Positions 7,563 to 47,200 are shown, counted from the stretch's first letter. The stretch: DNA of 64,000 nucleotides from Candidatus Shapirobacteria bacterium (GCA_028704635.1 JAQWFB010000003.1:56357-120356), one strand, 5' to 3'. The notes: generated from the sequence alone by a model not told the origin. Numbers and translations: made by a program.

Positions 7563-7635
7563 ATAAACTTTACATTCACCTAAAATTCATCTAATATTAA
7601 TTTGTTAGTTATTTTACAAAAGGAGGTGTATTTTA

Positions 7636-7836: not shown

Positions 7837-7847
7837 AGATATTCTTT

Positions 7848-7874: not shown

Positions 7875-8033
7875 AGTTCACCTTTATTTTTAAATAATCT
7901 TCAATTTCCTTTAATAATTTTTCTGTTGGTTTTCTACAATTACAGTTCTTATTATGTTCTATATGCCATTTTATTCGTTCTTTTTGGGTTGGATTTTTCG
8001 GCATTCTATTTTTCAAATGCCATTCTTTATTAA

Positions 8034-11773: not shown

Positions 11774-11853
11774 TATCTTTTTGTCTTCATTAAACACTTT
11801 TTCTTTTTAAAATTTAGATATAAAATTAACCTAATTATCGATTAATATTTAAA

Positions 11854-12306
11854 ATGAATGATTGTGTTTTTTGTAAAATTGTTAGTGAAGAATTACCATC
11901 TCATAAAATTTGGGAGGATGAAAAACACATTGCTTTTTTATCAATTTTTCCAAATACTGCCGGTTTTACTGTTGTAATTCCCAAAAAACATTTTTCTAGT
12001 TATGCTTTTGATTTAGAAGACGATGTTTTAAAAGATTTAATAATAGCAGCCAAAAAAGTGGCCAAACTTTTAGACAGTAAACTTGAAGACGTTGGAAGAA
12101 CGGCCATGATTTTTGAAGGCTTTGGCATAGACCATGTTCATGCCAAATTATTTCCCATGCATGGAACTAAAATGACCGAGTGGACACCTTTTAAATCTAA
12201 TGTTGATAAATATTTCGAACAATATGAGGGTTATGTTTCTTCACATGATTATAAAAGAGAGGATGATGCTAAATTAGCAGAGCTGGCTAAAAAAATTAGA
12301 GAATAA
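11854..12306 (+). CDS. HIT-family (histidine triad) hydrolase
   Basis: CVFCKIV...FPNTAGFTVVIPKKH, and a DHVHAKLFP histidine-triad-like motif. Confidence 0.75.
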   Translation: MNDCVFCKIVSEELPSHKIWEDEKHIAFLSIFPNTAGFTVVIPKKHFSSYAFDLEDDVLKDLIIAAKKVAKLLDSKLEDVGRTAMIFEGFGIDHVHAKLFPMHGTKMTEWTPFKSNVDKYFEQYEGYVSSHDYKREDDAKLAELAKKIRE

Positions 12307-15326: not shown

Positions 15327-18300
15327 TTAAGGAGTAATTATAGTGCTAACGTTTAACAGTTTATAATCGTAATAACTTTGAACCTTATCATAAGAATATT
15401 TTTTTACTCGATATACACTTTTTAAAATATATCCCAATCTTAAATTATGGTGTTTTAACCATTCATCTAAATATAATTTGTCTATCATAAGATGTTGGCC
15501 ATGATGTATCGGCAAATCACGGTCATACCTTTCCCTTAACCCTCCAAGCCAGTCACTATACTCAATAATATTTCGACTATTTAAATCTTGATACGACCAT
15601 TTATCTTCTTCTATCTTCAAGTTAAGATTTTTTGAAAGTTCAGGGGTTACATTTAAACTGATTTCCCTATCTCTATAATACTGCCATAAACCAATGCAAA
15701 AATCGTCGTTTCTAGATGTTAATGGATAAATAAACATGTCCTTTAGTTGAGTAAATTCATCACCAATGAGAATAAAATTACTTTGATCTTCAAGAAAATG
15801 AAAAGGATTATTTGTTTTTGTTGGTATTCTTGTAATTGTTTGGCTATATAGTACTTCTTTTGCTATTTCTTCAGGTGATGGAAGCTGTTTCCCGGTTACT
15901 TTATAACCGAAACCTATTAGAGAAAATGAGTGCATTGGAGGTGTGGATTGCCAATCAATACCCGGTTTTATCGAACCTTCGGCTGCAAGTAAATACTTTC
16001 CATCTCTTATTTCACATAATGTTTCAATAGGTTTTTTTAAAGATAAAGAAACAATATTACTTTTTTGGGATACTTCTCCATCGTTTAATTGCGGCCACCA
16101 ACTAGGAATTGGTTTTGGTGATATTTTCCAAAATGATAGTTCGACAGGCAAAGTAGCGTAAGCCCATTCAAGATAAATATCGTTAGGAATTTCTTTTTGA
16201 CTGTGAAAATATTGTAATACCCTAATAAATGCTGATCGATAAACCTGACTTACCTTCGAGGAAAATCCAATAACGAAATCATCATTCTGACTTCTACCCA
16301 TGAAATAGGTTTGATTAGAATCAAGGATAGTGGAGGTATTTTCAACTATCTTATCTGAAACATACGACCAATATTTTATAAATGGTTTACCAGTTGCTTT
16401 TTCGATTTCCTTGGCTCTAATCATATAAATAGGTGCTAGGAATGTTTTAATATGTCCTAAAAAAAACTTGGATATTACATAATTTATAGGAGGGATTTCA
16501 ATCTTTTCATAATTAAGTTCAAATGACTTTGTGGACTTTAATAATTCTGCTATCTCAGAAACCAGTTTATCTACTACAATAGAATTGATTTTTATGGAAT
16601 TTTCGATATCCTTGTAAGAAATATAACTTAATTCACTTATATCTCTTACTAAAAAAATTGCTTTTAAAATAACTAATAACCCGATTGCGATAGTACTTTC
16701 CATTTTTTGTTGGCTAATCCAAACTAGAAGTCTTGTAAAAATGTCTTTTTTGTCTTTAGACTCAATTAATAATCTTGATATCGATGTGGCTGCTCTTTCC
16801 TGAGTAATAGTACTTGGCCATAATAGTCTTTGAAAAAGAAGATCTATAAGATCAATTGAATTTTTATCTTTTTGCCATTCAATATCTGGTAGAGCTAGAT
16901 TGGCCATCAATTCTTCAGCGAATAAAATACTTGAATCAGTGATCTCTTCCGCGACAGCTTGATCATCAAATTGTAAAAAATATTCAACTCCAGTAGAAAG
17001 TGGAACCCCGCCTTCGGTACTTTTTTTGAAGAACTCTAAATATCTTTTTGGGAAAAGTGTTTTAACAATATTCCATCTTTGTTCTGCCTTTTTTTTATCT
17101 GTCCAATATTTTTGCCATCCATGATCGTTTGTTTGTGCGGAACATAAATACTCAAAAGCTTCTTGATTATCAAACTCTTGAGCAAGAGGGAATATTGTAT
17201 CTAATAATTCACCTGAAACATTTTGGATACCATATTTTTTGATCAACTCTTTACAAATCTTATAAACTTCTTTTTTGTCATAATTATCTGTCCAATACTT
17301 TGACCAACCTTTCAAATAATCTGACATTTGCCACTTGTTTTCAAAGTTTGATTCTAAATATGATTTCAGATCATCTGGTTTTATGGTTGAATAATCAATT
17401 ATTTCAGGTGTATATGGTGTTGTATTTCCTCTGTCTTCTTCAGGATAATTAATTTCTCCAAGATATTCTTCGATATTGTTTAATGCGATTTTTGCACCAG
17501 AATTGTTTTTTGATTGTTCTTTTAGAATTGTGAATGATCCCTTATCCAATGCAGTACTCGACAGAGCTATTTCAATGTCGCTTGAATAAGTAAACGATTC
17601 TATTAATATCTTGAAGAGGTTTTCTGCATGATATAGTTCTTCATTTTTGGTAGCATAATACAAGTTTTTAAATAGTAGATTTCTATTTCGTTTCGCCAGT
17701 AAACTTGCCAACTCATCCCTAAGATAACCTGTTTCATCACCGTCGGTATATTCTCCAATGTGCTCAATAATTGGGATAAGTTTATTAATCCAATTATTAA
17801 TTTTTTCTGTAGGTAAGCCGTTTTCAGCACAAAAATCAATAGCTTCTAACACTTCGAATAGAAACATGTCTTTGTGATAGCCGTATCCAAGTAAATTATT
17901 TATGGCGTCTATTAACAGTGGCTTTGAGGTTTTTTCATTATCATATAGGCGGATTAATTTTGTAATTTCGGCATAACCTTTTGATCTATCTGGAAAATAA
18001 GTCACCGAGTCTATCAGCCCTTTAATCTTTTCGTCTCTTATTTTTTGAAAAACATTTTTACTCAATATGGCAACATCGTAATCAAGAGAGAGATCAAGTA
18101 AATCTTTTCTACTGAATAAGAATGGTATTTTATCTATAAGTTTACAATCGTCAATTTCGAAGAGTAAACTGTTTCCGAAAAATGCTTTTATGTTCATGAG
18201 ATCTTTTAAAATTAAGTTTAAGGAATCATGAAAAGCATTTTGTATATTCAATGAATCTCTATCTTCGGGCCACTTAAGTTCCGGTATAGTAATTAAATTG

Positions 18301-21203
18301 ACAAATAAATCTTTATAATTTACTTGCGATTTGTTTATTGAATGCCCAATTGCTAAACTTGCCTCGAACAATGATTTCATAGCATTTACAGACCACTCGT
18401 TATTGGCGTTTTTCATCCAATCCTCTATAACTTTTTCCTTATTGGTTAAGCAATATAGAATTCCCGTCAAAAAACTTTCATAAAAAATATCCCTCCAATA
18501 GGCTCGTTCATTTGGATCGTGTTCTTTCAACACTATTGGGAAAGCGTCTCGAGCTGGTAAGATGGGGCAGTTTTTTATCGGCATACCTTTGATATGAAGG
18601 TAAATTAGCTCTAGTGAAGATAAATTTATTTTTTTATTGAGTAAACCAGACAGATCATGAGAGTTTTTTATAAAGCCGTGTCTAAGATATTCATACCAAA
18701 TTGCTTTTTCTTCATCAGATGTAAGTTTATATTGGAGAAGTTCTTCTAGTTTATTAGTTTGTCCTGTAGATAATAAAGCTGAACTATAAGTTTTAAATAA
18801 TAATGATGTTATGCCCAAATCATTAAATTGAGATATATAATCGTATATTTTTTTAACTTTATGATTTCTGTTAAAAATGATTGTCTCTAATAAAGCATTC
18901 GTGACCAAAGGAACTTCTTCATGTCGATACTCTTGATAATCAAGTCTCTCGATAAGTTCATCAATAATTGCTTTAATAATCCGATCCTTACCTACTGAAT
19001 CAGCTAAGCATGCTAATGTAGATAAAGTTTTTACTGGTAGTTCATTTATATTTATATGCTCAAACAAGTTTTGATTCTGAAAAAAAGATTCTTTCAATAT
19101 TAGCTCTGATGATTCTTCTATAAAACTTTTTGAGTTAATGTAATAATTATTAAGGTAAGAGAGTTTTAATGCTTTTGCAAAATCATTTTGTTCGAAGGCA
19201 ACTTTTGAAGCTTTTTCTAATTGAAACGATATTTGACTCGGATTTGAAGAAATACAAATTGCTTCTATAAGCCATTTTCTATCAATGTTTAGTATGGGGG
19301 TATTATTACCAAGGTCGCATTCGATTAATCTTAGTTCTGCCCACTTTAAATATTCATAAGATGATTGTTCAAGCCACTTTTTTATATTTGTCCTTAAAAC
19401 AATTTTTTGCTGTTCGAACTCAACTCGATTTTTAAGGTAGATTTCGAAACTATTATGGTAAACACTTAATTCGTCTCGATAATTAATTTTTATTAAGTGG
19501 GCTATGGAATTAAACCCACTGGTAATATCTGACGGATTAATTAAAGTGGATGAAACACACTCGATAAGTTGTTGTTCCGTAAAATGAAAATTTACAGAAC
19601 AAACTATTAATAATAGATTTTTTGCAATATCGGAAATTTTCAACCAAAGTGAGTCATAATATTTTTCAATATTCCCTGCATAAGGGATTAGATCACGGCA
19701 TGAGTATTCATTAACTACTGTGTTTCCATTAATGTTTTTTAACTGTTGAAGTGTATATCGTAGATGAAGTGGATTTCCTTTAGTAATTTCACAGACTTTA
19801 TTAACAAGCTCCTTCAACTGCTGAACATCTACTGGAAGTTTAAGAGATATTATATTCTTCTTTATCAAACTCGATATTGAAAATCTATTTAAACCATCAA
19901 TTTTAATCCAATCTTTTTCTGGACATTTTTCTGTGATTATTAAAGGCAAGTAAGGCTTTGCGACTAGTTGCATTCCAATTACTATCCAAACGCCCTTCTG
20001 AGGAAAACTGATTTCGTTTAAAAATGTTTTGAGTTCTTTATCTGCACCATATTTTAGCGGATGATCAAGACCATCAATAATGATTACGAAAGGTCTTTTA
20101 TTTTGTACTGACTTTTCTGCTATTTTTTTAATAAATTCACTTAATGGAAGACCTGGAGAGTTTATGTTTGATAATTCTTCAAGATCATCCTTGTGTATTT
20201 TGAATTGAGCTTTTATAGCATCTATTACGCGGTTAGAATTTAGCCTTTCCATTGGGTTATCATCTTCTGGAGAGATGTGATAGTGGTGCTTTATTGATAT
20301 TACCCCCAATTTATTTAACTGTTCATCTAACTTTGAAAGATAAACACTTTTCCCTGACCCTGGTTCTCCATATATGACCTTTATGCCACCATTAATATTA
20401 TTTAAATCTTTCAATATACCTTTATGAACTGTTTCATCAAAAAATTGAAAATCGGATGGAATTATAAATTTTTCATTTAATGGTTTTGGGATATCAAACT
20501 CACATTGTTTCCTGATTTCTTCGAGTCCAATATTAATTGTGTATTCGTCTTGAGCTCTATTTCGTATCCATTGAATAAAACTATCAAAGCCTGCTTTTGT
20601 AACATGTAGAGTATTGTAATAAAAATTTCTGACATCTATCCCAAACTCATCCTGACTCTTTTGAGAGAATTTGAACTTAAGTTTCTTAAAGAACTGTGTT
20701 GTCAGTTTCTGTCCACCAATTAGTTTTTCGATGGATTTATATAAAACCAGGTCACTCTTTTTTATTAACTCAATATCAATTAATTCATTTTTTAGATATT
20801 TCTTGACTTCTCTAGAAGCTCCGGCATTTGTGATAAAAAAAGCAGTATCTGTATTATTATAAAAACTCTGATTGTTTAGATCTCCTCTGAACAGGGAATA
20901 AGCCCACTTATTTAAAAGTGATTTTTTGCTTTTTGGAAGAGGCTCAATTAATTCACTCCAGGTCCATACATTATTTGGGTCTACTTTATGTTTAGTCTGA
21001 TATAATTCGTATTTCCCTGCCAAATTTGTTACAACAATATCATCTAAATAAAAGTCTTTTTGTTCATTTTTATCTGGATTAACTTCAAATTGTATGGATT
21101 GATATGCTTCTGGATTTAAAAGCCAATCACCAGCTAATTTGACTCCCCATAACTCTTGGTAATAATCTCCTTTTTTTCTAGCACTAGTAATATTTTTTTT
21201 CAT
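15327..21203 (-). CDS. Giant STAND/NACHT-type P-loop NTPase with an N-terminal Mrr-like (PD-(D/E)xK-type) domain and a C-terminal helical-repeat region; Avs-like antiviral candidate
   Basis: 1958 aa. Walker A VIYGEPGSGKS (aa 276-286). Walker B-like FVIIIDGLDH (the hhhhDGxDE pattern of NACHT/STAND). N-terminal GDYYQELWG...DFYLDDIVVTNLAGKYELYQTKHK resembles the Mrr_cat D...(Q/E)xK core. About 1300 aa of predicted alpha-helical repeats sit C-terminal. The overlapping small ORFs in the track are spurious. Confidence 0.6.
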   Translation of the reverse strand: MKKNITSARKKGDYYQELWGVKLAGDWLLNPEAYQSIQFEVNPDKNEQKDFYLDDIVVTNLAGKYELYQTKHKVDPNNVWTWSELIEPLPKSKKSLLNKWAYSLFRGDLNNQSFYNNTDTAFFITNAGASREVKKYLKNELIDIELIKKSDLVLYKSIEKLIGGQKLTTQFFKKLKFKFSQKSQDEFGIDVRNFYYNTLHVTKAGFDSFIQWIRNRAQDEYTINIGLEEIRKQCEFDIPKPLNEKFIIPSDFQFFDETVHKGILKDLNNINGGIKVIYGEPGSGKSVYLSKLDEQLNKLGVISIKHHYHISPEDDNPMERLNSNRVIDAIKAQFKIHKDDLEELSNINSPGLPLSEFIKKIAEKSVQNKRPFVIIIDGLDHPLKYGADKELKTFLNEISFPQKGVWIVIGMQLVAKPYLPLIITEKCPEKDWIKIDGLNRFSISSLIKKNIISLKLPVDVQQLKELVNKVCEITKGNPLHLRYTLQQLKNINGNTVVNEYSCRDLIPYAGNIEKYYDSLWLKISDIAKNLLLIVCSVNFHFTEQQLIECVSSTLINPSDITSGFNSIAHLIKINYRDELSVYHNSFEIYLKNRVEFEQQKIVLRTNIKKWLEQSSYEYLKWAELRLIECDLGNNTPILNIDRKWLIEAICISSNPSQISFQLEKASKVAFEQNDFAKALKLSYLNNYYINSKSFIEESSELILKESFFQNQNLFEHININELPVKTLSTLACLADSVGKDRIIKAIIDELIERLDYQEYRHEEVPLVTNALLETIIFNRNHKVKKIYDYISQFNDLGITSLLFKTYSSALLSTGQTNKLEELLQYKLTSDEEKAIWYEYLRHGFIKNSHDLSGLLNKKINLSSLELIYLHIKGMPIKNCPILPARDAFPIVLKEHDPNERAYWRDIFYESFLTGILYCLTNKEKVIEDWMKNANNEWSVNAMKSLFEASLAIGHSINKSQVNYKDLFVNLITIPELKWPEDRDSLNIQNAFHDSLNLILKDLMNIKAFFGNSLLFEIDDCKLIDKIPFLFSRKDLLDLSLDYDVAILSKNVFQKIRDEKIKGLIDSVTYFPDRSKGYAEITKLIRLYDNEKTSKPLLIDAINNLLGYGYHKDMFLFEVLEAIDFCAENGLPTEKINNWINKLIPIIEHIGEYTDGDETGYLRDELASLLAKRNRNLLFKNLYYATKNEELYHAENLFKILIESFTYSSDIEIALSSTALDKGSFTILKEQSKNNSGAKIALNNIEEYLGEINYPEEDRGNTTPYTPEIIDYSTIKPDDLKSYLESNFENKWQMSDYLKGWSKYWTDNYDKKEVYKICKELIKKYGIQNVSGELLDTIFPLAQEFDNQEAFEYLCSAQTNDHGWQKYWTDKKKAEQRWNIVKTLFPKRYLEFFKKSTEGGVPLSTGVEYFLQFDDQAVAEEITDSSILFAEELMANLALPDIEWQKDKNSIDLIDLLFQRLLWPSTITQERAATSISRLLIESKDKKDIFTRLLVWISQQKMESTIAIGLLVILKAIFLVRDISELSYISYKDIENSIKINSIVVDKLVSEIAELLKSTKSFELNYEKIEIPPINYVISKFFLGHIKTFLAPIYMIRAKEIEKATGKPFIKYWSYVSDKIVENTSTILDSNQTYFMGRSQNDDFVIGFSSKVSQVYRSAFIRVLQYFHSQKEIPNDIYLEWAYATLPVELSFWKISPKPIPSWWPQLNDGEVSQKSNIVSLSLKKPIETLCEIRDGKYLLAAEGSIKPGIDWQSTPPMHSFSLIGFGYKVTGKQLPSPEEIAKEVLYSQTITRIPTKTNNPFHFLEDQSNFILIGDEFTQLKDMFIYPLTSRNDDFCIGLWQYYRDREISLNVTPELSKNLNLKIEEDKWSYQDLNSRNIIEYSDWLGGLRERYDRDLPIHHGQHLMIDKLYLDEWLKHHNLRLGYILKSVYRVKKYSYDKVQSYYDYKLLNVSTIITP

Positions 21204-25206: not shown

Positions 25207-26973
25207 TTGCACCAATGGGGGCATTTAAGTATGGAAAACAAATATTTTATATACTGTAGAAAATCTAGTGAACAAGAAGATAGACAGGTTCTTTCTCTGG
25301 ATTCACAAGAAAAAGTTTTGGTGAATTTGGCAAAGGAAGAAAAACTGAATGTTATAGATATTTTGAGAGAATCTGGAACTGCACATTCAATGGGGAGAAA
25401 AATATTTGCAGAAATGAACTTGAGATTATTACGAGGTGAGGCTAATGGACTACTTGTCTGGGATGAATCACGAATTGCTAGAAATGCTGGTGATGGTGGA
25501 ATGATAATTAATATGTTTGATATTGGTAAATTGGTGGAAATAAAAAAACCTGGAAAAACTTATCGAAACACTCCTGATGATAAATTCTTTTTAAATTTAA
25601 TATTTTCGATGTCAAAAAAAGAATCAGATGATAAAGGAGTAAATGTAAAAAGAGGTTTAAATACAAAGGCTGAAAAAGGATGGTTACCAAGTGGAGCAAA
25701 ACCTGGATATATGAATGATAAATATGCAGAAAAGGGAAATAAAACAATAAAATCTGATCCTGAAAGATTCCCGATTATTAGAAAAGTCTGGGATCACTTT
25801 ATTTATCAAGGATACTCAATACCTAAGATTTTAAAAAAAATGAATGATGAATGGGGTTATAGATCCCCTGTTAAGAGATCTATTGGGGGTAAACCAATGT
25901 GTCGAAGTCAATTGTATTTAATCCTTCGCGATCCTTTTTATTATGGCTATTTTGAATATCCAATTGGTAGTGGAAAATGGCGTAAAGGAGCTCATAAGCC
26001 GATGATTTCTGAAGAGGAATTTAATAGAGCACAAGTAATCCTTGGTAGGAAAATGGCTCCTAAACCACATAAAACTGAATTTGCTTATACAGGTTTAATT
26101 ACTTGTAGTGAATGTGGAGCAAGAATAACAGCGGAAGAAAAGTGGCATACAGTGTGTTCTGTTTGTAAAACGAAATTTAATTCAACTCATAATAATATCT
26201 GCCCGAATTGTGGAATAAAAACTGAAGATATGGATAAACCAATTATTCGACATTACATTTATTATCACTGCACTAAAAAGAAAAATCCTAATTGTGTTCA
26301 AAAGAGTGTTGAGATAAAAGAGTTAGAAAGACAATTGGATATTTTGTTAGGTGAGGTCCAAATATCAGATAGGTTTGTAAAATGGGCGTTAAAACATTTA
26401 AATGAGCTTAATGATGAGGAAGTTGAAGATAGAAATAATATTGTTAATGCCCTTCAAAATACCTACACTAATTGTTTAAAAAAATTAGATAATTTAACAG
26501 CCTTGATGATTTCTCCTAATAATGCTGATCGATCACTGTTAAGTGATAACGAGTTTAAAGAACGGAAAACAGAAATATTAGAAGAAAAACAAAAATTAGA
26601 AAATCAGATGAATAATACCGGAAGAAGAGTGGAAGATTGGTTAAAAGAAGTTGAAGATAAGTTTGATTTTGCCACACAAGCAAGGAAAAAATTTAATGAA
26701 CCTGATATAACAATTGAAGAAAAAAGAGAGATGATGTTTAGGATAAGTTCGGACCTCAAACTTTATAACAAAAACATCGATGCTTTACTGGAAAACTTAT
26801 ATGAGCCTCTCAGGAGAATAACAAAGGGAGAACCTACAACAAAGCTAGAGTTCGAAACTAAAGAAATAAAGGAAAAATACGGTAATTTAGAGTCTTATTG
26901 GACTCAAAATCCATTAGTGCTCGGCGGAAGGGATGGGAGTCGAACCCACATGCCATTTCTGACGCAGGTTTAG
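25207..26973 (+). CDS. Large serine recombinase (resolvase/invertase N-domain, recombinase domain, Zn-ribbon)
   Basis: N-terminal YFIYCRKSSEQEDRQVLSLDSQ with catalytic Ser/Arg. ARNAGDG...PGYM recombinase domain. Cys-rich CSECGARITAEEKWHTVCSVC...CPNCG zinc ribbon. C-terminal coiled coil. The last roughly 17 codons (positions 26925-26973) overlap the tRNA-Ser gene on the opposite strand. Confidence 0.85.
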   Translation: MHQWGHLSMENKYFIYCRKSSEQEDRQVLSLDSQEKVLVNLAKEEKLNVIDILRESGTAHSMGRKIFAEMNLRLLRGEANGLLVWDESRIARNAGDGGMIINMFDIGKLVEIKKPGKTYRNTPDDKFFLNLIFSMSKKESDDKGVNVKRGLNTKAEKGWLPSGAKPGYMNDKYAEKGNKTIKSDPERFPIIRKVWDHFIYQGYSIPKILKKMNDEWGYRSPVKRSIGGKPMCRSQLYLILRDPFYYGYFEYPIGSGKWRKGAHKPMISEEEFNRAQVILGRKMAPKPHKTEFAYTGLITCSECGARITAEEKWHTVCSVCKTKFNSTHNNICPNCGIKTEDMDKPIIRHYIYYHCTKKKNPNCVQKSVEIKELERQLDILLGEVQISDRFVKWALKHLNELNDEEVEDRNNIVNALQNTYTNCLKKLDNLTALMISPNNADRSLLSDNEFKERKTEILEEKQKLENQMNNTGRRVEDWLKEVEDKFDFATQARKKFNEPDITIEEKREMMFRISSDLKLYNKNIDALLENLYEPLRRITKGEPTTKLEFETKEIKEKYGNLESYWTQNPLVLGGRDGSRTHMPFLTQV

Positions 26974-27007
26974 CAAACCTGTGGCTTACCATTCGCCGCA
27001 CCCTTCC
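26925..27007 (-). tRNA. tRNA-Ser (anticodon GCT), class II with a long variable arm
   Basis: Minus-strand sequence GGAAGGGtgCGGCgaatggtaaGCCaCAGGTttGCTaaACCTGcgtcagaaatggcatGTGGGttcgactCCCATCCCTTCCg. 7-bp acceptor stem, anticodon loop TTGCTAA, T-loop TTCGACT, discriminator G. Confidence 0.75.
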
Positions 27008-27063
27008 TGGGGATAGTGTTTTAGTATATCAAATTTTTCTCAAATGCTTTAAAATTAAAACAA

Positions 27064-27602
27064 TGAAGAAGAAAGCAGTTAGCAAGGTTGATAAGGCGAT
27101 AAAAGACATTAACGAAGAAAAAACTTTATTCAAATGGACAGCCGCCGAAAGGGCATTTAAGAAGAGAGACAAAGATTTTTGGATCACTGCTATTTCCATT
27201 TTAGTTCTATTTTCAGTCGTTTTAATTTTTATTGAAGAATTTTTTCTAATCGTCGCTCTCGTTTCAGTTTTATTTTTATATTACGTTCTCTCTACTGTCC
27301 CTCCTCAAGAAGTTAAATATAAAATTACCAACAGGGGAATTCATTTTGGTGATTCAAAATATAGTTGGGACATTTTATTAAGATTTTGGTTCAGGAAAAG
27401 TCTTAACGTTGAGCTTTTAGAATTTGAAACTAATCTAAGAGTTCCTCGACAAATTTCTTTTGTTATTAAAGAATCTGACAAAGAAGAAATAAAAAAAATT
27501 GTTTTAAAAAAATTACCTTTAGTTGAATCATCGCCAAATTTTGTTGATAAATTGGCCAAGTGGTGGAACGATAAAATGCCTTGGGAAAAACGGGAAAAAT
27601 AG
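27064..27602 (+). CDS. Hypothetical membrane protein (the tracked ORF trimmed to an internal Met)
   Basis: The tracked ORF starts at 26898 inside the tRNA-Ser gene. The likely real start is MKKKAVSKVD at 27064. Two TM helices. Confidence 0.45.
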
Positions 27603-27634
27603 ACTTTATTTGGTATAATTCATATGATTTATTT

Positions 27635-27706
27635 GCGCTTATAGTTTAATGGATAGAATAGCGGTTTGCGGAACCGTTGATCCAGGTTCGATTCCTGGTA
27701 GGCGCA
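27635..27706 (+). tRNA. tRNA, most likely Arg with anticodon GCG by my manual fold
   Basis: GCGCTTAtaGTTTaatggataGAATaGCGGTttGCGgaACCGTtgatCCAGGttcgattCCTGGTAGGCGCa. Acceptor and T arm (GGTTCGATTCC) are clear. Anticodon loop TTGCGGA. Promoter-like TATAAT sits upstream. Confidence 0.7.
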
Positions 27707-27719
27707 CTCTTTAAAAAAT

Positions 27720-27801
27720 GGAGGGTTGGCCGAGTGGTTTATGGCGCACGCCTCGAAAGCGTGTGGGGAAACCCGCAGAGGTTCAAATCCTCTACCCTCC
27801 G
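27720..27801 (+). tRNA. tRNA-Ser (anticodon CGA), class II
   Basis: GGAGGGTtgGCCgagtggtttatGGCgCACGCctCGAaaGCGTGtggggaaacccgcAGAGGttcaaatCCTCTACCCTCCg. Anticodon loop CTCGAAA, long variable arm, discriminator G. Confidence 0.8.
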
Positions 27802-27813
27802 CTCAATATTTAA

Positions 27814-38673: not shown

Positions 38674-38734
38674 TTTTTACTCGATATTCTTCGTGCTAAA
38701 ATCGTATACACGATTATTTTTTAAAAATATTTTT

Positions 38735-39022
38735 ATGACCAAAATCCATCCGGTTCCTGGCTTTTTATTAGTCGAACCACAAAAAAAAGAATCCACCACT
38801 GCCTCCGGCATTGTTCTCCCTGAATCTCATCAGGACAAACCTCAACAAGGAAAAGTTTTAGCCATTGGTGATGCCACTTTTATTGATGGTCGAGAAGTTA
38901 AATCCCCTTGTCAAATAGGCGATATTGTCGTTTATAAAGAATGGGGTGGCAAAGAATACAAGGAAGATTCCGTCGATTTGTTATTATTAAAATTCGACGA
39001 CATCATGGCAATCATAAAATAA
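38735..39022 (+). CDS. groES: Co-chaperonin GroES
   Basis: KIHPVPGFLLVEPQ...ASGIVLPES...GKVLAIGD...GDIVVYKEWGG. The tracked ORF start at 38693 is an upstream over-extension. Confidence 0.9.
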   Translation: MTKIHPVPGFLLVEPQKKESTTASGIVLPESHQDKPQQGKVLAIGDATFIDGREVKSPCQIGDIVVYKEWGGKEYKEDSVDLLLLKFDDIMAIIK

Positions 39023-39027
39023 TTTAA

Positions 39028-40695
<1,668 letters not shown>

Positions 40696-40715
40696 ATCAA
40701 AGTCTTTTCATTAAA

Positions 40716-40741
40716 AACCCTCCCTAATCGGAGGGTTTTTA
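40716..40741. terminator. Intrinsic (palindromic, bidirectional) terminator CCCTCCctaatcGGAGGG followed by TTTTT
   Basis: Sits between the groEL stop and the convergent minus-strand operon. Same motif as the hairpin at 6078. Confidence 0.65.
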
Positions 40742-41494
40742 ATTCAAATCCAATACTATCGGAAGTAATTTCTTCAAAAATTCTAAAAAATTAGAAATTT
40801 TAATAACACCGATTTTACAGAGAAAGCAAATTAATATAGAAACTATAAAAATAACTAATAACCATCTTAAAATCCAACTTAATGTATTACGTAAAAACTT
40901 TTTCAAAAAACCACCAAAAATTTTAGATTTCTTTTCTCTATTTATTTCAATCATTGCGTTTGTCAAAACTTCTATTCCGTTTTCACCCAGTTTAAAGGCG
41001 TACTGGGCATATTTATCTTTCTCTGAATTTAAATCTTCAGACGCTAAACCTAACAGTTCTAAAAATTTAGCAAACCAAAAAATTATTTTATTCCCTTCAG
41101 CTCTTATCAAACCATATTTAAAGTCATCCTTTAATAACAATCTCTCGATTTCCTTTTTTTTTCGAGAAATCTCTTTGATTTTTGTCGTACAAAAAATAAG
41201 CCACTTATCTCCTTCTAATGATTTAATTACGTCACTACCTGATTTTGTTATTTTATCTTTTTTATCTATCCAACCTATTTGTCTACAAAAAAACAACATA
41301 TCTGGGTCAATCAACCACCCATCCATGTAATACTCAAAAAATTGTTTTGTCTTTAAGAAACCGTTTTCTTGTTTTCTCCACTCTTGCCTTTTCTTATAAA
41401 GGGCAGTCTCTTGTGTTGCATTAACAAGAGGTAAATTATTTTCCCATTCTAATGGGTCAAAAGTAGTCCTTTCTTGATTTATTCCTAAACTCAT
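40739..41494 (-). CDS. Hypothetical protein with a C-terminal transmembrane anchor, translationally coupled to the upstream 1004-aa protein
   Basis: 251 aa. Soluble N-terminal roughly 210 aa, then C-terminal LSWILRWLLVIFIVSILICFLC. Its start overlaps the upstream stop (ATGA, 41491-41494). Confidence 0.45.
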   Translation of the reverse strand: MSLGINQERTTFDPLEWENNLPLVNATQETALYKKRQEWRKQENGFLKTKQFFEYYMDGWLIDPDMLFFCRQIGWIDKKDKITKSGSDVIKSLEGDKWLIFCTTKIKEISRKKKEIERLLLKDDFKYGLIRAEGNKIIFWFAKFLELLGLASEDLNSEKDKYAQYAFKLGENGIEVLTNAMIEINREKKSKIFGGFLKKFLRNTLSWILRWLLVIFIVSILICFLCKIGVIKISNFLEFLKKLLPIVLDLN

Positions 41495-44400
41495 TTAAAT
41501 ACCCCCATAATGGAGTTGTAAGGAATAGTTCCTGCAATCTCTTGAAGGTATTTCTTCTGAACATCTTCAATTTTTGTATTTAACCAATTTATATCTTCAA
41601 TATTTTGATTTTTTCTAAGCCATTTTTTAGTTTTTTCTATTGCTTCTAGTCTAGAATCCAATTCAATATTCCCCAAATATCCAAAAAATATATTCCATAA
41701 ATAATTTACAAAAGGCCAAACCTTTTGTCTTTCATTAGTGTTTAATCTTTCAACAGACAAATCCAATAAGGAAATTAATTTATCAAGATATTTTGGATTT
41801 TTTAACTTCATTATCGGCCCAGCAAAATAGAAATCATTGGTCTCGTTTTCTGCCGGTCCAACTTCATGAACCACACCAGTTGGAATAGTCAATCCCTCTA
41901 TTTCTTCTTTTTTACCTTTAATTCGGTCAATTCTCCAGTCAATTGACACCTCGTCACCAAATCTCCTAATTAAAATTCTATTAGCAATTTCCGCTAAATT
42001 TCTTTTAGTTTCATCTTCACTTTTAACACCATCAGTAAAAATACTTTCACAGTATTTTTTCTCTTCTTTAGTTTTTTTGATAAATTTTCCCAATACTTTT
42101 AATGCATGTCTTTGGTCATAACCAGAAACTTTTGAATCACCAATAAAAGATTTTAGTACTTTAACCACTTCATTTTTGTCGGTTTTCTTTTTTAAATTGA
42201 ATTGAACAAATTCGACGTAGGCCGATGGTAATAAGTATCCAGTATCATCATTTTTATCTAAATAAATTTTATTAATTCTTTCCAACTTTGAACTGTCTAC
42301 TTTTCCAACTATTTCACCAACGGTCACACGGTCGTCGGAGTAGGCAAATGGAATAAAATCAATAAAATCTTGATAATATTTTTTTAATTTATCCGGGTTT
42401 AATTTTTGAGTTGTTCGCATTGCGTCGCCATAATATTTGACATAGTCAGTAATATTGTAATTTTTTGCCCCATCGACACCAAAAGTATTTATTTTTACCT
42501 TTACTTTTTGTGGTTTGGCTTTTTCCAAAATTTCATCAACGGCTAAGTTTTTTAATCTTGTTAATTCCTCTTTTGAGACCTTACTTTCAAGCTCTTTTTG
42601 ATTTTGATTATAATATTCAAAAACGGTTGGAAAATATCGGTTATCTCCTGGTTCAAGTAATTTTTTAAACTCTTTATATTTACTATCAACCGGATCTTCA
42701 ACAACTTTTTCCTGTTTAATATCTTCTATCAATTGAAGCCTTACCGCTTCATCTTTAATTTTTACCCCATCATCTTTTCTATACCATCCAACTCGCCAAA
42801 CTGTCATATTTGCAAATCGGTCACTATCATTATCAATTTCTTTTATTTCAGTAAAAAATTTTCTCAAATCTTCTTTTTGGATTATCCAAGCCATTAAATC
42901 AACATAGTTATAAAGCAACTCAGATTTATTCTCTCCACTGTTTTTTAAATTTTCTAAAAGTTCAAATAAATATCTTTTTTCCTTATCTGATATTATTTCG
43001 GCTAATTTTTTGATGAAATATGATTCATTAAAACGATAATAACGGTTCTCACTAAAAGCCAAAGCGATAATATTTTTTAGTAATTTAGAAATATCTTTAT
43101 CAAAATATTTTCTGATTCTTTTAATAATTATTTCATCACGTGGATCTTTTTCTTTATTAAAAATACTTTCCTTGTCTAAAAATTCACTCAAAAAACTAAC
43201 TTCAGTGGCAAAAAAGTTTAATAATTCTTTTATTCCTGTTTTTGAGGTTATTTTATACAATGCATATCTACCATAAATATCAATTCCATGTTTATTTATT
43301 CCATCAACCACAGCCTTAATCGATTCATGATTATTTGGATCCGTATTTCCACAAAATCTCACGAATGCCTCTTTCACCAGAGAATCACTGTGACTGAAAC
43401 ATATTTCTTTAAGTTCAGGAATTAGATTTGGGTCTTTGTAATATGCCAAAACGTCCAAAGATTTTCTTTTAAGAACTCCATTTTCTTTATCGTCATTTTT
43501 AATTAGCTCAATCAATTTAGCTTTCCAAAAAATCAGACTTTCTTTAGTTAAAATTTCTTTTCTGAATTCAAAAACACCTTCTAAAATCTCTAAAATATTT
43601 CCCCATCTAACAATATTTTCAGTTCTAGTTCCTTTAATATTAATTTTTTCTTCTAATGACAGTATTTGCTCTTTTGAGGCATATTTTGAAAGCTGCTCAA
43701 TTGACCAATTTGAAATCCAGATTGTTTTATCCCAATAAGATTGGAAAATTAATTCAAAAATTTCAGTTTTAGTTTCATTTTTTAATAAATTAGATTCTAT
43801 TGAAGTTATCGCATTAGAAAAATATTCATCAACTGTATCTTTGTGACTTTTTGAGAAATTTAAAAGCCACTCTAAAACTAAATCACGAGTGTCAGTTTCT
43901 AACAAGAATCTTATAACCCCATACCAACTTGGATTTATCGCTTCAAACTTATCTTTTTTAACTATAGCTAAAAAATCAAGTTTTTTTATCGGCTCAGTTC
44001 TTAAAAAATTCTTTGCAGCCAAAAATTCTTGAATAATATGGTGATAAAATCCAGTTTTTAAAATTTTTTTATCTTTTTGATCCGGTCTATCTTCAATTAT
44101 TTTTTGAGAGTATAAATAATTAATTTCGTCTTCGACAACACCATCTTCTTTTGATAACCATAAAAATCTATCTTTATGGATTTCATTTGCCTGAAAATAT
44201 TCCATATTAATCGCCAAATCGTCAAGTTTCTCTAGTAGTAAATTGTCAGGTATTAATTTATCAAAAACATAATTTAAAAAATCAAATCTTGAATCAGGAA
44301 CTCTTTTTTTATCCCTAATAAATTCAATCAAATAATTCAAATATATTTCCCTAGAAATCAAACTATTGTAAGCATCCATTCTCCAAAACATTTCCACCAT

Positions 44401-44505
44401 CTCCTGTGCTTTGATTTTTGTCATTTTAAAGCCAGTAGGGTAGTTAGCCGCAATCAGTTTTTCGATTATTTCACTATTATCTAATCTTCCTGTTATAAAG
44501 GACAT
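41491..44505 (-). CDS. Large hypothetical protein (1004 aa) with HEAT/ARM-like helical repeats and no NTPase motif
   Basis: Predominantly alpha-helical repeat composition, for example NGVLKRKSLDVLAYYKDPNLIPELKEICFSHSDSLVKEAFVRFCGN (HEAT-like). No Walker A motif. Confidence 0.45.
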   Translation of the reverse strand: MSFITGRLDNSEIIEKLIAANYPTGFKMTKIKAQEMVEMFWRMDAYNSLISREIYLNYLIEFIRDKKRVPDSRFDFLNYVFDKLIPDNLLLEKLDDLAINMEYFQANEIHKDRFLWLSKEDGVVEDEINYLYSQKIIEDRPDQKDKKILKTGFYHHIIQEFLAAKNFLRTEPIKKLDFLAIVKKDKFEAINPSWYGVIRFLLETDTRDLVLEWLLNFSKSHKDTVDEYFSNAITSIESNLLKNETKTEIFELIFQSYWDKTIWISNWSIEQLSKYASKEQILSLEEKINIKGTRTENIVRWGNILEILEGVFEFRKEILTKESLIFWKAKLIELIKNDDKENGVLKRKSLDVLAYYKDPNLIPELKEICFSHSDSLVKEAFVRFCGNTDPNNHESIKAVVDGINKHGIDIYGRYALYKITSKTGIKELLNFFATEVSFLSEFLDKESIFNKEKDPRDEIIIKRIRKYFDKDISKLLKNIIALAFSENRYYRFNESYFIKKLAEIISDKEKRYLFELLENLKNSGENKSELLYNYVDLMAWIIQKEDLRKFFTEIKEIDNDSDRFANMTVWRVGWYRKDDGVKIKDEAVRLQLIEDIKQEKVVEDPVDSKYKEFKKLLEPGDNRYFPTVFEYYNQNQKELESKVSKEELTRLKNLAVDEILEKAKPQKVKVKINTFGVDGAKNYNITDYVKYYGDAMRTTQKLNPDKLKKYYQDFIDFIPFAYSDDRVTVGEIVGKVDSSKLERINKIYLDKNDDTGYLLPSAYVEFVQFNLKKKTDKNEVVKVLKSFIGDSKVSGYDQRHALKVLGKFIKKTKEEKKYCESIFTDGVKSEDETKRNLAEIANRILIRRFGDEVSIDWRIDRIKGKKEEIEGLTIPTGVVHEVGPAENETNDFYFAGPIMKLKNPKYLDKLISLLDLSVERLNTNERQKVWPFVNYLWNIFFGYLGNIELDSRLEAIEKTKKWLRKNQNIEDINWLNTKIEDVQKKYLQEIAGTIPYNSIMGVFK

Positions 44506-44686
44506 TTATTTTATAACCTATAAAACACTATTTCTAGTGGCTGTCCACCATCATACCCACTACCACTGGACCACGTCAATAGATTAAAATATATCAAAAC
44601 CCCAATTTACAATTAATCCGCGGATAAATAATCAAATCCCTCCTTAAATGTAGGTTTTTTTGATAAAATAGAGTACTTTTCAATCT

Positions 44687-44760
44687 GACGCGGTAGTCAA
44701 GCGGTTAGACAGCAGTCTGCAAAACTGCGTAGATGGGTTCGACTCCCATCCGCGTCTCCA
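44687..44760 (+). tRNA. tRNA-Cys (anticodon GCA), CCA encoded
   Basis: GACGCGGtagtcaagcggttagacaGCAGTctGCAaaACTGCgtagaTGGGTtcgactCCCATCCGCGTCtCCA. Anticodon loop CTGCAAA, T-loop TTCGACT. Confidence 0.85.
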
Positions 44761-44905: not shown

Positions 44906-45304
44906 ATGGCGAAACATAATCCTTATAAGTATTGTCGGAACCCAAAAGATTATCAAGATATGGAAGAGGCTTTAGACCAACAAGAAGCTGCAGAAATTAA
45001 GGTTTTTTTAAAATTCAACAACAATGATCTTAAGGAACTTCCACAAATTTGGCGTTTTGTTTTTGGCTTTTTGTTTATTTTTACGACAGTCATCTTAATT
45101 GCTTTTGACAAAAATCCTAAATTTATTAAAGCCCATCCGATCGAAATTATAACCTCATTTGTGCTTATTTTTTTGATCGCAGCCATACCAACTTTTAAAG
45201 CCCTACTAACAAAGAGAAAATTAATTCATAGGTTGGAAAAATTAGAAAATAAAAAATTCCAAACAACCTCAACAGCAAAAATAATTAAATTTCGACCGAA
45301 ATAA
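44906..45304 (+). CDS. Cassette 1 ORF: small membrane protein (2 TM), hypothetical
   Basis: 132 aa. Ribosome-binding site gaaaggaag upstream. Hydrophobic central region FVFGFLFIFTTVILIAF...IITSFVLIFLIAAI. Confidence 0.45.
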   Translation: MAKHNPYKYCRNPKDYQDMEEALDQQEAAEIKVFLKFNNNDLKELPQIWRFVFGFLFIFTTVILIAFDKNPKFIKAHPIEIITSFVLIFLIAAIPTFKALLTKRKLIHRLEKLENKKFQTTSTAKIIKFRPK

Positions 45305-45312
45305 AAACCTTT

Positions 45313-45453
45313 AGTTTTATTGATTTAAGCCGGTAGGTAGACTACATATTAAATATGTATACACCGCCGGCTCTTTTTTTGTTATAATGTAATTACTTTA
45401 TTGATTAGTCTATTGCAGACTTTTTTAATAAATTCCTTGAAAATCAATAAAAC
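45313..45453 (+). repeat. Inter-cassette module 1: right inverted repeat AGTTTTATTGATTT, hairpin/terminator (45329-45380), TATAAT box, left inverted repeat GAAAATCAATAAAACT
   Basis: Bounded by about 15-bp inverted repeats. Internal hairpin GCCGGtaggtagacTACATATtaaATATGTAtacaCCGCCGGC plus T9. Confidence 0.5.
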
Positions 45454-45494
45454 TTTGCAGTTTGTGTTTTAGAAAAAGAAAGGCGGTTTTGTCA

Positions 45495-45878
45495 ATGTCA
45501 AAGAAAATTCCAACGTCGACGCTGGATGAATTTTTTCATCTTACCAACAATGAAAAAATCAAGGTGGCCCACGTTGGCTATACCAAGGAAGGAGATTTGT
45601 ATTATGTAGATGAGTATGGAGATATAGAAAGGGTTGTAAGTAGAGCTAAAATCGTAAATAGTTATATTTGTAATAGCAATGAACCCTCTTCAGAAAATTT
45701 AAGTCTTAAGATCAAAGATTTAGTTGTCCAGAGAACATTTTTGATGTGGTTGGTTATTAAAATAAACAATCTTGAATACAAAAAAGAAAACTGCGGTAAA
45801 ATTAAAATCCCTTTTTCTACCTTCGTAGTTTTAACTTCACTAAACATAGATACAAAAATATTTAAAATAATTAAGTAG
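45495..45878 (+). CDS. Cassette 2 ORF: hypothetical protein
   Basis: The tracked ORF starts at 45462. The likely start is ATG 45495 (MSKKIPTST), preceded by the ribosome-binding site aaagaaagg. No motif recognised. Confidence 0.4.
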   Translation: MSKKIPTSTLDEFFHLTNNEKIKVAHVGYTKEGDLYYVDEYGDIERVVSRAKIVNSYICNSNEPSSENLSLKIKDLVVQRTFLMWLVIKINNLEYKKENCGKIKIPFSTFVVLTSLNIDTKIFKIIK

Positions 45879-45880
45879 TC

Positions 45881-46035
45881 AGTTTTATTGATTTTCATTT
45901 TAAACCGGGCAGGTTTGTGCATTAGCATAAATTATGTCCGGTATTTTTTTATAATTTTTAGTACAATCATTCACTTTATTAATCAGTGTCTTTAAGAGAA
46001 ATTAATAAATCGTTCCTTTAAAATTAATAAAACTA
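45881..46035 (+). repeat. Inter-cassette module 2: right inverted repeat AGTTTTATTGATTTT, hairpin/terminator (45903-45950), TATAAT-TTTAGTACAAT box, left inverted repeat AAAATTAATAAAACT
   Basis: Same architecture as module 1. Hairpin AACCGGGCAGG...TGTCCGGT plus T8. Confidence 0.5.
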
Positions 46036-46047
46036 ATAAAGAAAGAG

Positions 46048-46515
46048 GTGTTATTTTTGGTTAAAGATGTTTTTTTTGTCAGACATGGGGATTATAGTTT
46101 TAGCAGTGGGAAACTTAACAGTGAAGGAATAAGGTTAATCAATATCCTCGCAGACGAGATATTGCCTTACACCCTAAATAAAAAAATTGTGATTCTTTCA
46201 TCATCGGCAATTAGGACTTTAGACAGTGCTGAAATCATTAGTAATAAACTCAATATCCGTTTTGAAACCAAAGAAATATTATGTCCAGATAATAATTTTG
46301 ACCTTAAAGCTGTTTTTAATCTTATTCAATCATATATTGAAGAAGCTGATATTCTTATTTTAGTCACTCATTTAGAGTACACCGATGTATTACCGTATTA
46401 TTTTGCCTGTAAACAATTAAAAACAACTAGTCTTAAGTCATTTCCTATTCCTAAAGGCAGCGCATGGCACATCAATTGTGTCGAAAAAACTATAAAAATA
46501 ATTAATCCCCAGTGA
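46048..46515 (+). CDS. Cassette 3 ORF: histidine phosphatase superfamily (SixA/PGAM-like)
   Basis: RHG motif in FVRHGDYS, and a second His in ILVTHLEYTD. The tracked start is GTG 46048. Alternative TTG 46057 has better ribosome-binding-site spacing. Confidence 0.5.
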   Translation: MLFLVKDVFFVRHGDYSFSSGKLNSEGIRLINILADEILPYTLNKKIVILSSSAIRTLDSAEIISNKLNIRFETKEILCPDNNFDLKAVFNLIQSYIEEADILILVTHLEYTDVLPYYFACKQLKTTSLKSFPIPKGSAWHINCVEKTIKIINPQ

Positions 46516-46579: not shown

Positions 46580-47200
46580 TCAAAAATTTTCACAAACACC
46601 ATCCGCCCACATTCCTATCTTTTTTTCTTTTGCCATTTTTTCTACTTTTTTGAATTCTGTCTGAAATTTATAATCAATTTTGTAAGTATATTCCATACCA
46701 AATCCTTCCTCCACTAATTTTTTATTAACCAAAGTTCCATCTTCTAAATAAACATATCGTAGCAATCGGTCATATTTATCTTTATTATCTTGACTACTAT
46801 CAGCCTCCAATTTTATTTTTTTATTTTCCATTAATTCTTTTGCTCTTTTAGTTGCCTCTTTTTCAAAACATTCATTTTTTTCCGGGGTATCAATTCCAAC
46901 CAGTCTTATAGATTCCTCTTTGCCGTTAATTTTCACTATCACTGTGTCACCATCAATTACTTTTACCACTTCAACTAATTCTTGTTCTTGTTTCACAATA
47001 GGAGTTGTTACTGCCAGTTTTAGTCTTTCAATTGGATTAATATTCTCTTTTACTACTTTTCTTTGATTTCTATTTTGTAAAATTTTAAAAACCAATATTA
47101 AAAATAAAATTCCAGCTATTGTCCATCCCAAATTTTTTATCTTAAAAATCTTTCTCATTCTCCTATCACTTGTACCAAAACTTTTCTTGGCCGACAACAA
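46580..47200 (-). CDS. Thermonuclease (SNase-like), membrane-anchored
   Basis: VIDGDTVIVKINGKEESIRLVGIDTPE matches the staphylococcal nuclease motif DGDT...RLxGIDxPE. N-terminal TM. The real start is probably the internal Met at 47158, which gives a 4-nt overlap with the upstream gene. Confidence 0.7.
   Translation of the reverse strand: MLSAKKSFGTSDRRMRKIFKIKNLGWTIAGILFLILVFKILQNRNQRKVVKENINPIERLKLAVTTPIVKQEQELVEVVKVIDGDTVIVKINGKEESIRLVGIDTPEKNECFEKEATKRAKELMENKKIKLEADSSQDNKDKYDRLLRYVYLEDGTLVNKKLVEEGFGMEYTYKIDYKFQTEFKKVEKMAKEKKIGMWADGVCENF

Follow-up and report, generated by a model that had tools for sequence, protein, structure and literature searches.

Two overlapping minus-strand genes in a 64,000-nucleotide (nt) stretch of DNA from a Candidatus Shapirobacteria bacterium (GCA_028704635.1, JAQWFB010000003.1:56357-120356; the whole stretch is called the window here) probably constitute a bicistronic and self-contained system, of the sensor-effector kind and with a role in conflict or immunity, which would act against phages or mobile elements through abortive infection. 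The larger gene encodes a 1004-amino-acid (aa) putative sensor related to NACHT proteins of the signal transduction ATPase with numerous domains (STAND) class; the smaller encodes a 251-aa protein with a predicted C-terminal transmembrane (TM) helix. An accessory, possibly defensive pairing of a sensor with a membrane effector had been suggested in a preliminary description of this DNA. That suggestion is supported by the NACHT derivation of the sensor, a swappable effector slot, effector fusions, a sparse and non-syntenic family, and neighbors of relatives that include restriction-modification (R-M), toxin-antitoxin (TA), GmrSD, and recombinase genes. We infer the defense role, the trigger, the formation of a complex, and damage to the membrane, and we are less sure that the 251-aa protein acts by damaging the membrane than we are of the defense-type reading. 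The two genes and their principal parts are as follows.

41491 to 44505, minus strand: sensor gene, an open reading frame (ORF) of 1004 aa (PHD49_02650, deposited as a hypothetical protein of a metagenome-assembled genome)
40739 to 41494, minus strand: partner gene in the effector slot, an ORF of 251 aa (PHD49_02645, deposited as a hypothetical protein)
41491 to 41494, minus strand: 4-nt ATGA start/stop overlap in the sequence, the ATG of the small gene lying on the TGA of the large gene
43891 to 44505, minus strand: sensor residues 1-205, remnant of the part of a NACHT module that follows the nucleoside triphosphatase (NTPase), comprising a helical domain and a winged helix, with beta-hairpins at residues 137-153 and 181-190
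44014 to 44052, minus strand: conserved motif of the winged-helix domain (WHD) type, GFYHHIIQEFLAA, sensor residues 152-164, assigned by motif position and alignment
41494 to 43890, minus strand: HEAT/ARM-like alpha-solenoid, sensor residues ~206-1004 (~800 aa), from HEAT_2, alphaRep, and structural matches and secondary structure
40811 to 40885, minus strand: predicted single TM helix of the 251-aa protein, residues ~204-228, after the basic stretch KKSKIFGGFLKKFLRN, from Kyte-Doolittle hydropathy

The origin of the sensor can be traced through its relatives. A word-indexed homolog search recovered 16 full-length relatives (986-1025 aa, 30-45% identity) and four distant ones of 1338-1376 aa bearing P-loop or NACHT-type matches, and a HMMER search of 1.84 billion representatives returned 989 at E <= 1e-3, 366 of them at E <= 1e-30. 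Among the best 164 of the 989, which were classified, about 80 carry an N-terminal NTPase domain and 62 have no nucleotide-binding domain (NBD). The NTPase-bearing long forms show a Walker A motif xEPGxGK[ST] (GEPGxGK[ST]), a Walker B motif hhhhD[GA]LDE, and a sensor-1 motif S[SC]R, and Pfam NACHT is matched by 18 of the 24 long forms scanned, with a best E of 1.8e-9. Four of the long relatives (P0017-P0020) and about 80 further representatives align across the whole core, and full-length alignments to NACHT-bearing proteins reach E values down to 1e-60. A precomputed annotation, PF28130 (DUF8371), is attached to long-form relatives, and a literature search on DUF8371/PF28130 found no paper.

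In a joint alignment, every short form starts directly after the NBD (Walker A/B and sensor-1) of relatives of 1330-1435 aa, and all short forms keep the helical/winged-helix region 3' of it. The window motif GFYHHIIQEFLAA lines up with F[ED]NxEFQEYLAA of the long forms, and its residues H155, H156, E160, and L162 are unchanged across 10 short forms. This start point and the retained WHD region argue that the window sensor is, as judged from homology, an NLR-type (nucleotide-binding, leucine-rich-repeat) receptor without its NTPase, descended from NACHT/NLR-type STAND proteins. We call it NACHT-derived rather than a NACHT protein because the defining NTPase is absent, while the homology, the WHD module with its xxQE[FY]LAA-type motif, and the repeat sensor are all found. 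The ancestral architecture most likely comprised an NTPase, a helical/winged-helix module, a HEAT solenoid, and, as a C-terminal extension, a segment bearing a nuclease-like motif, of which the window sensor has lost the first and the last. Such an extension, ~170-200 aa long with a conserved D...E.K motif (RTDFLI..GF.GPI..E[IV]KL), is present on 64 of the ~80 NTPase-bearing forms; otherwise a long form has a DUF4365 gene (L008) or small multi-TM genes (L018, L019/L022) downstream of it.

The sensor itself is almost wholly alpha-helical with HEAT character, and its AlphaFold2 (AF2) model is confident (predicted local distance difference test [pLDDT] 88.7, predicted template-modeling score [pTM] 0.76). 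Pfam HEAT_2 (PF13646) matches residues 330-403 at 22.2 bits (E 1.7e-4), below the 27.7-bit gathering threshold, and rises above that threshold in the homologs P0002 (29.3 bits) and P0009 (33.7 bits); it covers ~10% of the window sensor and is silent on function. The family profile also matches alphaRep designed HEAT proteins in the PDB over residues 333-434, and a Foldseek comparison with the PDB brought up nothing other than generic HEAT solenoids of the importin/CAND1 type, with low TM-scores. The solenoid is presumed to be the ligand-sensing part. A motif scan of the 1004-aa protein found no Walker A, Walker B, or D[AGS]hDE motif, and there is no Pfam P-loop match. The large protein had been described as HEAT/ARM-like, devoid of an NTPase motif, and unrecognizable; the first two points are borne out by the motif scan, HEAT_2, and alphaRep, and the third gives way to an NTPase-less derivative of NACHT/STAND proteins.

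The loss of the NBD appears to be shared. A neighbor-joining tree of the shared core, which is a simple distance tree and not a likelihood analysis, places 55 of 56 complete NBD-less forms in one pure clade, and this purity implies, at the resolution of such a tree, that the domain was lost essentially once and that diversification came afterward. In start point and length, the NBD-less clusters, at least 55 of them and diverged, are alike. The short-form reading frames close a few codons 5' of the starts, and the DNA upstream of the window sensor holds a promoter-like site and a tRNA and no lost exon. An NBD profile run against six-frame translations of the window and 15 short-form loci found no NACHT-like ORF, only generic P-loop matches of 20 bits or less; the NTPase has therefore not simply been split off nearby. 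In one related pair of loci (L004 versus L107), the sensor has a dN/dS of 0.087 and the partner one of 0.049, so that both genes are under purifying selection there. The NBD-less form is a lineage, not debris. The idea that the pair is a decaying remnant, a 5'- and 3'-truncated, non-functional NACHT defense gene with a fortuitous ORF downstream, draws on the absence of the NTPase and of the C-terminal nuclease-like extension of the ancestral architecture, and it is largely refuted and scarcely tenable in view of the intact 1004-aa ORF, the diverged clusters with a common start and length, the low dN/dS values, the confident AF2 model, and the conserved overlap with the partner gene.

Two further observations concern members of this family. 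In the complete 1.32-Mb genome CP064960.1 (L026), translation table 11 breaks the family match at 5911-8751 into short ORFs of up to 423 aa; this is either a pseudogene or a sign of an alternative genetic code. Small helix-turn-helix (HTH) genes of the HTH_17/MerR or XRE type lie directly 5' of the sensor in L006 (5574-5867), L007 (5660-5881), and L108 (1234-1428); L005 instead has an XRE-type HTH gene (11661-11894) ~2.7 kb downstream of its sensor. An N-terminal HTH_17/MerR domain is fused before the NBD in 2 of 24 long forms (P0049 and P0072, which have the longest N-terminal extensions; that of P0072 reads as such a domain). These neighbors and fusions suggest that transcriptional control is tied to the system, and no small HTH gene of this kind is present in the window.

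The second line of evidence is the slot occupied by the 251-aa protein. We considered the 16 NBD-less loci with readable downstream DNA, the window included, and all 16 have a same-strand gene downstream of the sensor, overlapping it by 1-14 nt in 15 loci and separated by a 14-nt gap in the other. At least six unrelated families fill this slot. In six loci the slot holds a mutually related family of ~240-260 aa that looks PD-(D/E)xK-like and whose D...(E/D)CKN motif is invariant; one locus carries TIR_2 (L110) and one SLFN_AlbA_2 (L001/L002). Another six hold TM-bearing proteins of at least three unrelated kinds (the window and L003; L017; L005 plus L005b; L015 and L109), and in two the protein is soluble and of no assigned family (L011, L013).

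The same modules recur as fusions. An NBD-less sensor, P0024, ends in a C-terminal TIR domain (22.6 bits against a cut-off of 21.3; PADLOC PDC-S66, E 3.8e-10), P0058 ends in Mrr_cat (24.4 bits against a cut-off of 21), and P0128 is fused C-terminally to the D..ECK domain that is a separate gene elsewhere. An RNDFTH (HEPN-like) segment in P0027 and a TIR-like FISHA segment in P0037 were noticed by eye only. PADLOC matches of the relatives arise solely through the NBD (mad8, weak) or a fused TIR domain (PDC-S66). TIR domains and Mrr nucleases are known defense effectors. The conserved slot, the interchangeable toxic modules, and the alternation of a single domain between split and fused states together point to an immune system built of exchangeable sensor and effector modules. 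Conservation applies to the partner slot, in its position and overlap geometry; the 251-aa family itself is co-conserved only with the closest sensor homolog. The expectation that the gene pair would be co-conserved is thus borne out for the slot, in 16 of 16 loci, and for the specific 251-aa family only beside that closest homolog, P0002.

The partner in the window has a simple layout, with a hydrophilic N-terminal region of ~200 aa, the basic stretch, one strongly hydrophobic segment, and a short amphipathic tail. Kyte-Doolittle windows above 1.6 begin at residues 200-222, and AF2 puts the TM segment inside a long helix at residues 171-227, which agrees with the earlier picture of a soluble N-terminal domain with one C-terminal TM helix. 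The positive-inside rule predicts an N-in, tail-anchored topology with a cytoplasmic N-terminal domain. Its sole homolog among 5.8 billion clusters is P0022, a 316-aa protein that is 28-30% identical in the N-domain and also has a C-terminal TM helix; the P0022 gene lies downstream of the P0002 gene and overlaps it by 4 nt. Searches with the single sequence and with a two-sequence profile gave nothing beyond P0022, and a local jackhmmer run across all partner proteins converged without gaining further members. In hhalign comparisons, the 251-aa family showed a weak hint of similarity with the partner in L013 (P = 0.0017) and none with those in L017 and L005.

Short acidic proline motifs are shared, near the N-termini, by several partners that differ in effector type: FDPLEWEN in the window, LPLFEWEE in L011, VPPELEQ in L003, and APPELEK in L004, with L107, L108, and L109 also considered. 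The underlying pattern, P[PL]E[LW]E, was noticed by eye, fits few sequences when applied strictly, and has BLAST E values of 0.004-0.03 in a tiny database. From its sequence, it may be a common sensor-docking peptide. The L001 and L007 partners have EYQPYP in common.

The arrangement of the pair between its neighbors is given by the following features.

38693 to 40695, plus strand: groES/groEL, from ORF calls, convergent with the pair
40710 to 40743, strand-neutral: perfect 14-bp hairpin AAAAACCCUCC..GGAGGGUUUUU with A- and U-run flanks, from folding
44550 to 44579, minus strand: sigma-70-like promoter candidate, TTGACG-18 nt-TATGAT, a 10/12 match to the consensus
44687 to 44760, plus strand: tRNA-Cys(GCA), called by ARAGORN, 181 nt upstream of the sensor gene; it marks the upstream boundary of the operon and lies outside the system

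Both parts of the earlier account of this layout, an ATGA overlap of two minus-strand genes (the 1004-aa and 251-aa ORFs, at 41491-41494) and a position between a palindromic groEL terminator (40710-40743) and tRNA-Cys (44687-44760), agree with these coordinates. A GGGGG run resembling a Shine-Dalgarno sequence lies 9-13 nt 5' of the small-gene ATG. The hairpin sits in the 43-nt spacer between groEL and the small gene, overlaps the small-gene stop codon, and has a folding free energy of -19.3 kcal/mol (z = -6.24), with 0 of 200 shuffles equally stable; as a predicted structure, it can terminate transcription from both sides and would serve as a bidirectional intrinsic terminator common to groEL and the small gene. 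The promoter candidate is ~45 nt 5' of the sensor ATG, in a region where the count of such sites is no higher than the shuffled expectation. Taken together, the overlap, the promoter-like site, and the shared hairpin make the pair look like an autonomous bicistronic operon.

When these features are combined, a mechanism can be proposed. Translational coupling would supply both proteins in fixed proportion, and they could form an inactive complex through the cytoplasmic N-terminal domain of the effector, held at the membrane by its C-terminal helix. A protein derived from an invader would then bind the HEAT solenoid and shift the complex to another conformation or oligomeric state with no need of a nucleotide switch, as in Dsr1 and DSR2. 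Tail-anchored effectors released or clustered in this way would perturb the membrane, with the result that growth of the infected cell stops, as in abortive infection.

A wider proposal, which we advance tentatively and hold to be rather doubtful, is that the NBD-less clade as a whole constitutes a distinct class of nucleotide-independent, NLR-derived immune sensors that arose once, mainly in Patescibacteria or the candidate phyla radiation (CPR), and kept the winged-helix module to couple plug-in effectors. In some members, the signal would reach small membrane executioners by way of amyloid-like motifs paired at the termini, in unicellular, ultra-small bacteria and with a polarity reversed relative to known bacterial amyloid signaling sequences (BASS), and the window pair would be a direct-binding, tail-anchored version. 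NLR/STAND receptors are defined by their NTPase switch, and here a diversified lineage under purifying selection has dropped it and kept the winged helix, the sensor, and the effector slot. Such a lineage would show how pattern recognition can be linked to effectors that kill the cell when no nucleotide drives oligomerization, which would complement the reuse of an Avs7 sensor in the NTPase-less Dsr1, and a candidate immune system would be added to CPR/Patescibacteria. A single sensor found with TIR, nuclease-like, SLFN, or TM partners, fused or split, offers a set of natural experiments and makes the hypothesis directly testable.

Several results weigh against an immune function for the pair. 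Apart from HEAT_2, scans of both window proteins with Pfam, NCBIfam, and PADLOC gave sub-threshold noise, and matches to PADLOC-DB v2.0.0 were at E 0.01 or worse over short stretches only. No recognizable toxic domain was found in the 251-aa protein with Pfam, NCBIfam, or PADLOC; its AF2 model is poor overall (pLDDT 57), and its single TM helix could serve as nothing more than an anchor. For the D..(E/D)CK family in the slot, the assignment as a nuclease looks to depend on its motif and on weak matches to Mrr_cat, PDDEXK_3, and RRG7 (E ~0.05-0.1) obtained against PDB and Pfam profiles. STAND signaling normally depends on NTP-driven oligomerization, and without an NBD nucleotide-dependent oligomerization is impossible in cis for the window sensor. 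The window neighbors are housekeeping genes (iPGM, enolase, an FkbM methyltransferase, and GroES/EL), with no defense genes among them. IMG/VR viral contigs, scanned with the patterns used, contained no family member, which leaves the family with no direct tie to phages.

The surroundings of the relatives present a different picture from those of the window. Type I R-M genes adjoin the family in L003 and L005, a gene resembling N6-methyltransferases (NPPY motif) abuts the sensor in L109, GmrSD and AAA_15/DUF3696 are near L009, and Gp49/HTH and Phd antitoxins are near L006; ParB-methylase, PrimPol, and serine recombinases or integrases are found near L004, L005, L007, L008, and L009. In all, R-M, TA, GmrSD, or recombinase genes occur within 6 kb in ~9 of 12 related loci, as a raw count. 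The preliminary description proposed a look for enrichment near known defense genes; such genes do lie near relatives in this raw count, and the window itself has housekeeping neighbors.

The same neighborhoods could be read as those of a conflict system that is not directed against phages, such as a selfish addiction or exclusion module, or a module through which an episymbiotic CPR cell deals with its host or with rival cells, with the 251-aa protein as a membrane toxin restrained by the sensor in the manner of a TA pair. Toxin-type domains (TIR, nucleases) in the slot, the recombinases, TA genes, and plasmid-type genes (TrbL, ParB-methylase) beside relatives, the tight translational coupling reminiscent of TA operons, and the lack of relatives among the IMG/VR viral contigs with the patterns used would all fit. 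A 1000-aa, NLR-derived solenoid, however, is typical of ligand sensors and not of antitoxins, the window pair is not on a recognizable mobile element, and phage proteins are what the known STAND-derived sensors with effectors of this sort detect (PMC13581612). We therefore regard this alternative as unlikely.

The distribution of the family bears on another alternative. Members occur in metagenome-assembled genomes labeled Shapirobacteria, Patescibacteria, Paceibacterota, Saccharibacteria, Ignavibacteria, Aminicenantes, Dormiibacterota, Acidobacteriota, and others, in protein clusters of one or two members each; the family is sparse, with a different genomic context in every genome and no synteny. 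GroEL-anchored relatives of the locus at 75-79% identity have no module, other genes after groEL, no tRNA-Cys, and no synteny. Given this sparse, non-syntenic distribution and the GroEL loci without it, the two genes are clearly no housekeeping pair of the conserved sort, and the preliminary concern that it might be one in all related genomes does not materialize. The suggestion of a tRNA-flanking variable spot could not be confirmed: the GroEL relatives at 75-79% identity that are without the module are also without tRNA-Cys and synteny, and a contig with 98% identity ends in groEL. That metagenome contig (L027, Ga0265294_10004474) carries a GroEL 98% identical to that of the window and breaks off in the groEL 3' end (8591), just before the module position, which could reflect strain heterogeneity at the junction or chance.

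A non-immune scaffold, in which a housekeeping HEAT adaptor is brought to the membrane by its tail-anchored partner, for instance for envelope or secretion functions, and the NLR likeness is ancestry only, is quite improbable against this background. It would suit the housekeeping neighbors in the window, the generic role of HEAT solenoids as protein-binding scaffolds, and the lack of a toxic domain in the 251-aa protein. It does not sit well with a sparse, non-syntenic family that is missing from closely related GroEL loci. Nor would a housekeeping tether be expected to swap with TIR, Mrr, SLFN, and nuclease-like modules in sister lineages, and the long-form relatives are NACHT proteins that end in an extension with a nuclease-like motif.

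It could also be speculated that the short form is an accessory or decoy of a full-length STAND protein, either needing an NTPase in trans or modulating one. Truncated NLRs regulate full-length NLRs in eukaryotes, and the WHD motif contacts the nucleotide or the NBD in NLRs. The strong conservation of the WHD motif (HH, E, and L invariant) would be explained, and the window has another giant gene of STAND-like character, the 1958-aa protein at 15327-21203 being among the candidates. This reading is very improbable: the NBD-profile search of the window and the 15 short-form loci brought up no NACHT-NBD-like ORF, with generic P-loop matches at no more than 20 bits, and the short forms own an effector slot, which argues for autonomy.

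The sensor-effector reading of the pair leaves several features elsewhere in the window to be recorded. The 1958-aa protein (15327-21203, minus strand) is unrelated to the sensor, has a STAND-like P-loop at residues 273-410 (AAA_22 at 30.1 bits, NPHP3_N at 25.5 bits), and may be another NLR-like conflict gene. In the region 25207-27802, the gene of a large serine recombinase of 588 aa (Resolvase, Recombinase, and Zn_ribbon_recom) overlaps with its 3' end tRNA-Ser(GCT) (26923-27007, minus strand), and tRNA-Arg and tRNA-Ser follow at 27635-27802; an integrated element to which the 1958-aa gene belongs may have its edge in this region. At 8034-11065 (minus strand), the end of a PMT_2-type glycosyltransferase gene (746 aa) is overlapped by 4 nt by a gene for a patatin-like phospholipase (264 aa), an unusual coupling. 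Past tRNA-Cys lie three small plus-strand ORFs (44906-46515) of 132 aa, with a hydrophobic segment, 138 aa, and 155 aa, none with a Pfam match, and beyond them an SNase homolog (46580-47200, minus strand), UPF0047, and an extracytoplasmic function (ECF) sigma factor.

Two of the related loci show paired terminal motifs rich in G, N, S, and V. In L015 (8980-9317), the sensor C-tail DRSIIIVDSSIDGSNIGS resembles the N-terminus DTSINIVESKLEGSNVAS of the next protein, a 76-aa TM protein (56% over 18 aa, pairwise E 3e-4). In L005/L005b (8966-9965), the C-terminus of the 241-aa partner, STNVPGNGNKVQGG, resembles the N-terminus of the next 96-aa TM protein, STNVTGDGNSVQGG, through STNV.G.GN.VQGG (E 7.5e-7). 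The 125-aa TM protein of L109 resembles the small L015 protein (E 2e-4). No shared terminal motif was detected within the window pair, where the best match had an E of 0.2 at internal positions.

Placed beside known systems, these paired motifs formally match the layout of NLR-associated amyloid signaling, in which paired-motif architectures have been described (Dyrka et al. 2020, Ibarlosa et al. 2024). As in the NLR/Bell and Bab/Agp systems (BASS), an NLR-type or sensor gene adjoins a small membrane-targeting executioner gene. The polarity is reversed in L015 and L005, where the C-terminus of a sensor or adaptor is paired with the N-terminus of an effector, and the pairing is known here from sequence alone. 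BASS have been reported mainly in multicellular Actinobacteria and Cyanobacteria, not in CPR bacteria, in that literature (Dyrka et al. 2020, Ibarlosa et al. 2024). If the L015 and L005 motifs are real, amyloid-type signaling would extend to CPR bacteria, with reversed polarity.

The likeness to bacterial NACHT (bNACHT) and Avs systems is broader. It includes homology over the whole length, a helical/WHD module bearing the QE[FY]LAA motif, a large sensor at the C-terminus made of alpha-repeats, interchangeable effectors (TIR, Mrr, PD-(D/E)xK-like, TM), and a sparse, horizontally scattered occurrence near R-M and TA genes. The window sensor differs in having no NTPase domain at all, so that the defining molecular switch is absent, and none of the PADLOC models, Avs or other, matches it. 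Most Avs proteins carry their effector at the N-terminus, whereas here effectors are C-terminal or encoded by the overlapping downstream gene. N-terminal effectors are described in PMC13581612. A literature search joining Patescibacteria, defense systems, and NACHT found no paper.

For nucleotide-independent activation, the nearest functional analogy would be Dsr1/DSR2. The STAND sensor fold of Avs7 is common to the NTPase-less Dsr1, and the phage major capsid protein is detected by each of the two (Lee et al. 2026, PMC13581612); DSR2 is a SIR2 effector with a HEAT-repeat domain that is activated by the tail tube protein (PMC11263360). Like the window sensor, these proteins rely on a large HEAT-like helical-repeat sensor that works without a STAND NTPase, and no sequence relationship to Dsr1/DSR2 was detected. 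They differ from the window pair in their fused N-terminal SIR2 domain, which contrasts with a separate, translationally coupled, tail-anchored partner, and the window sensor retains the WHD part of the NACHT module. NLR-like sensor-effector immunity is itself known, and what would be new here is a form of it that is free of the nucleotide switch and has a split, swappable effector.

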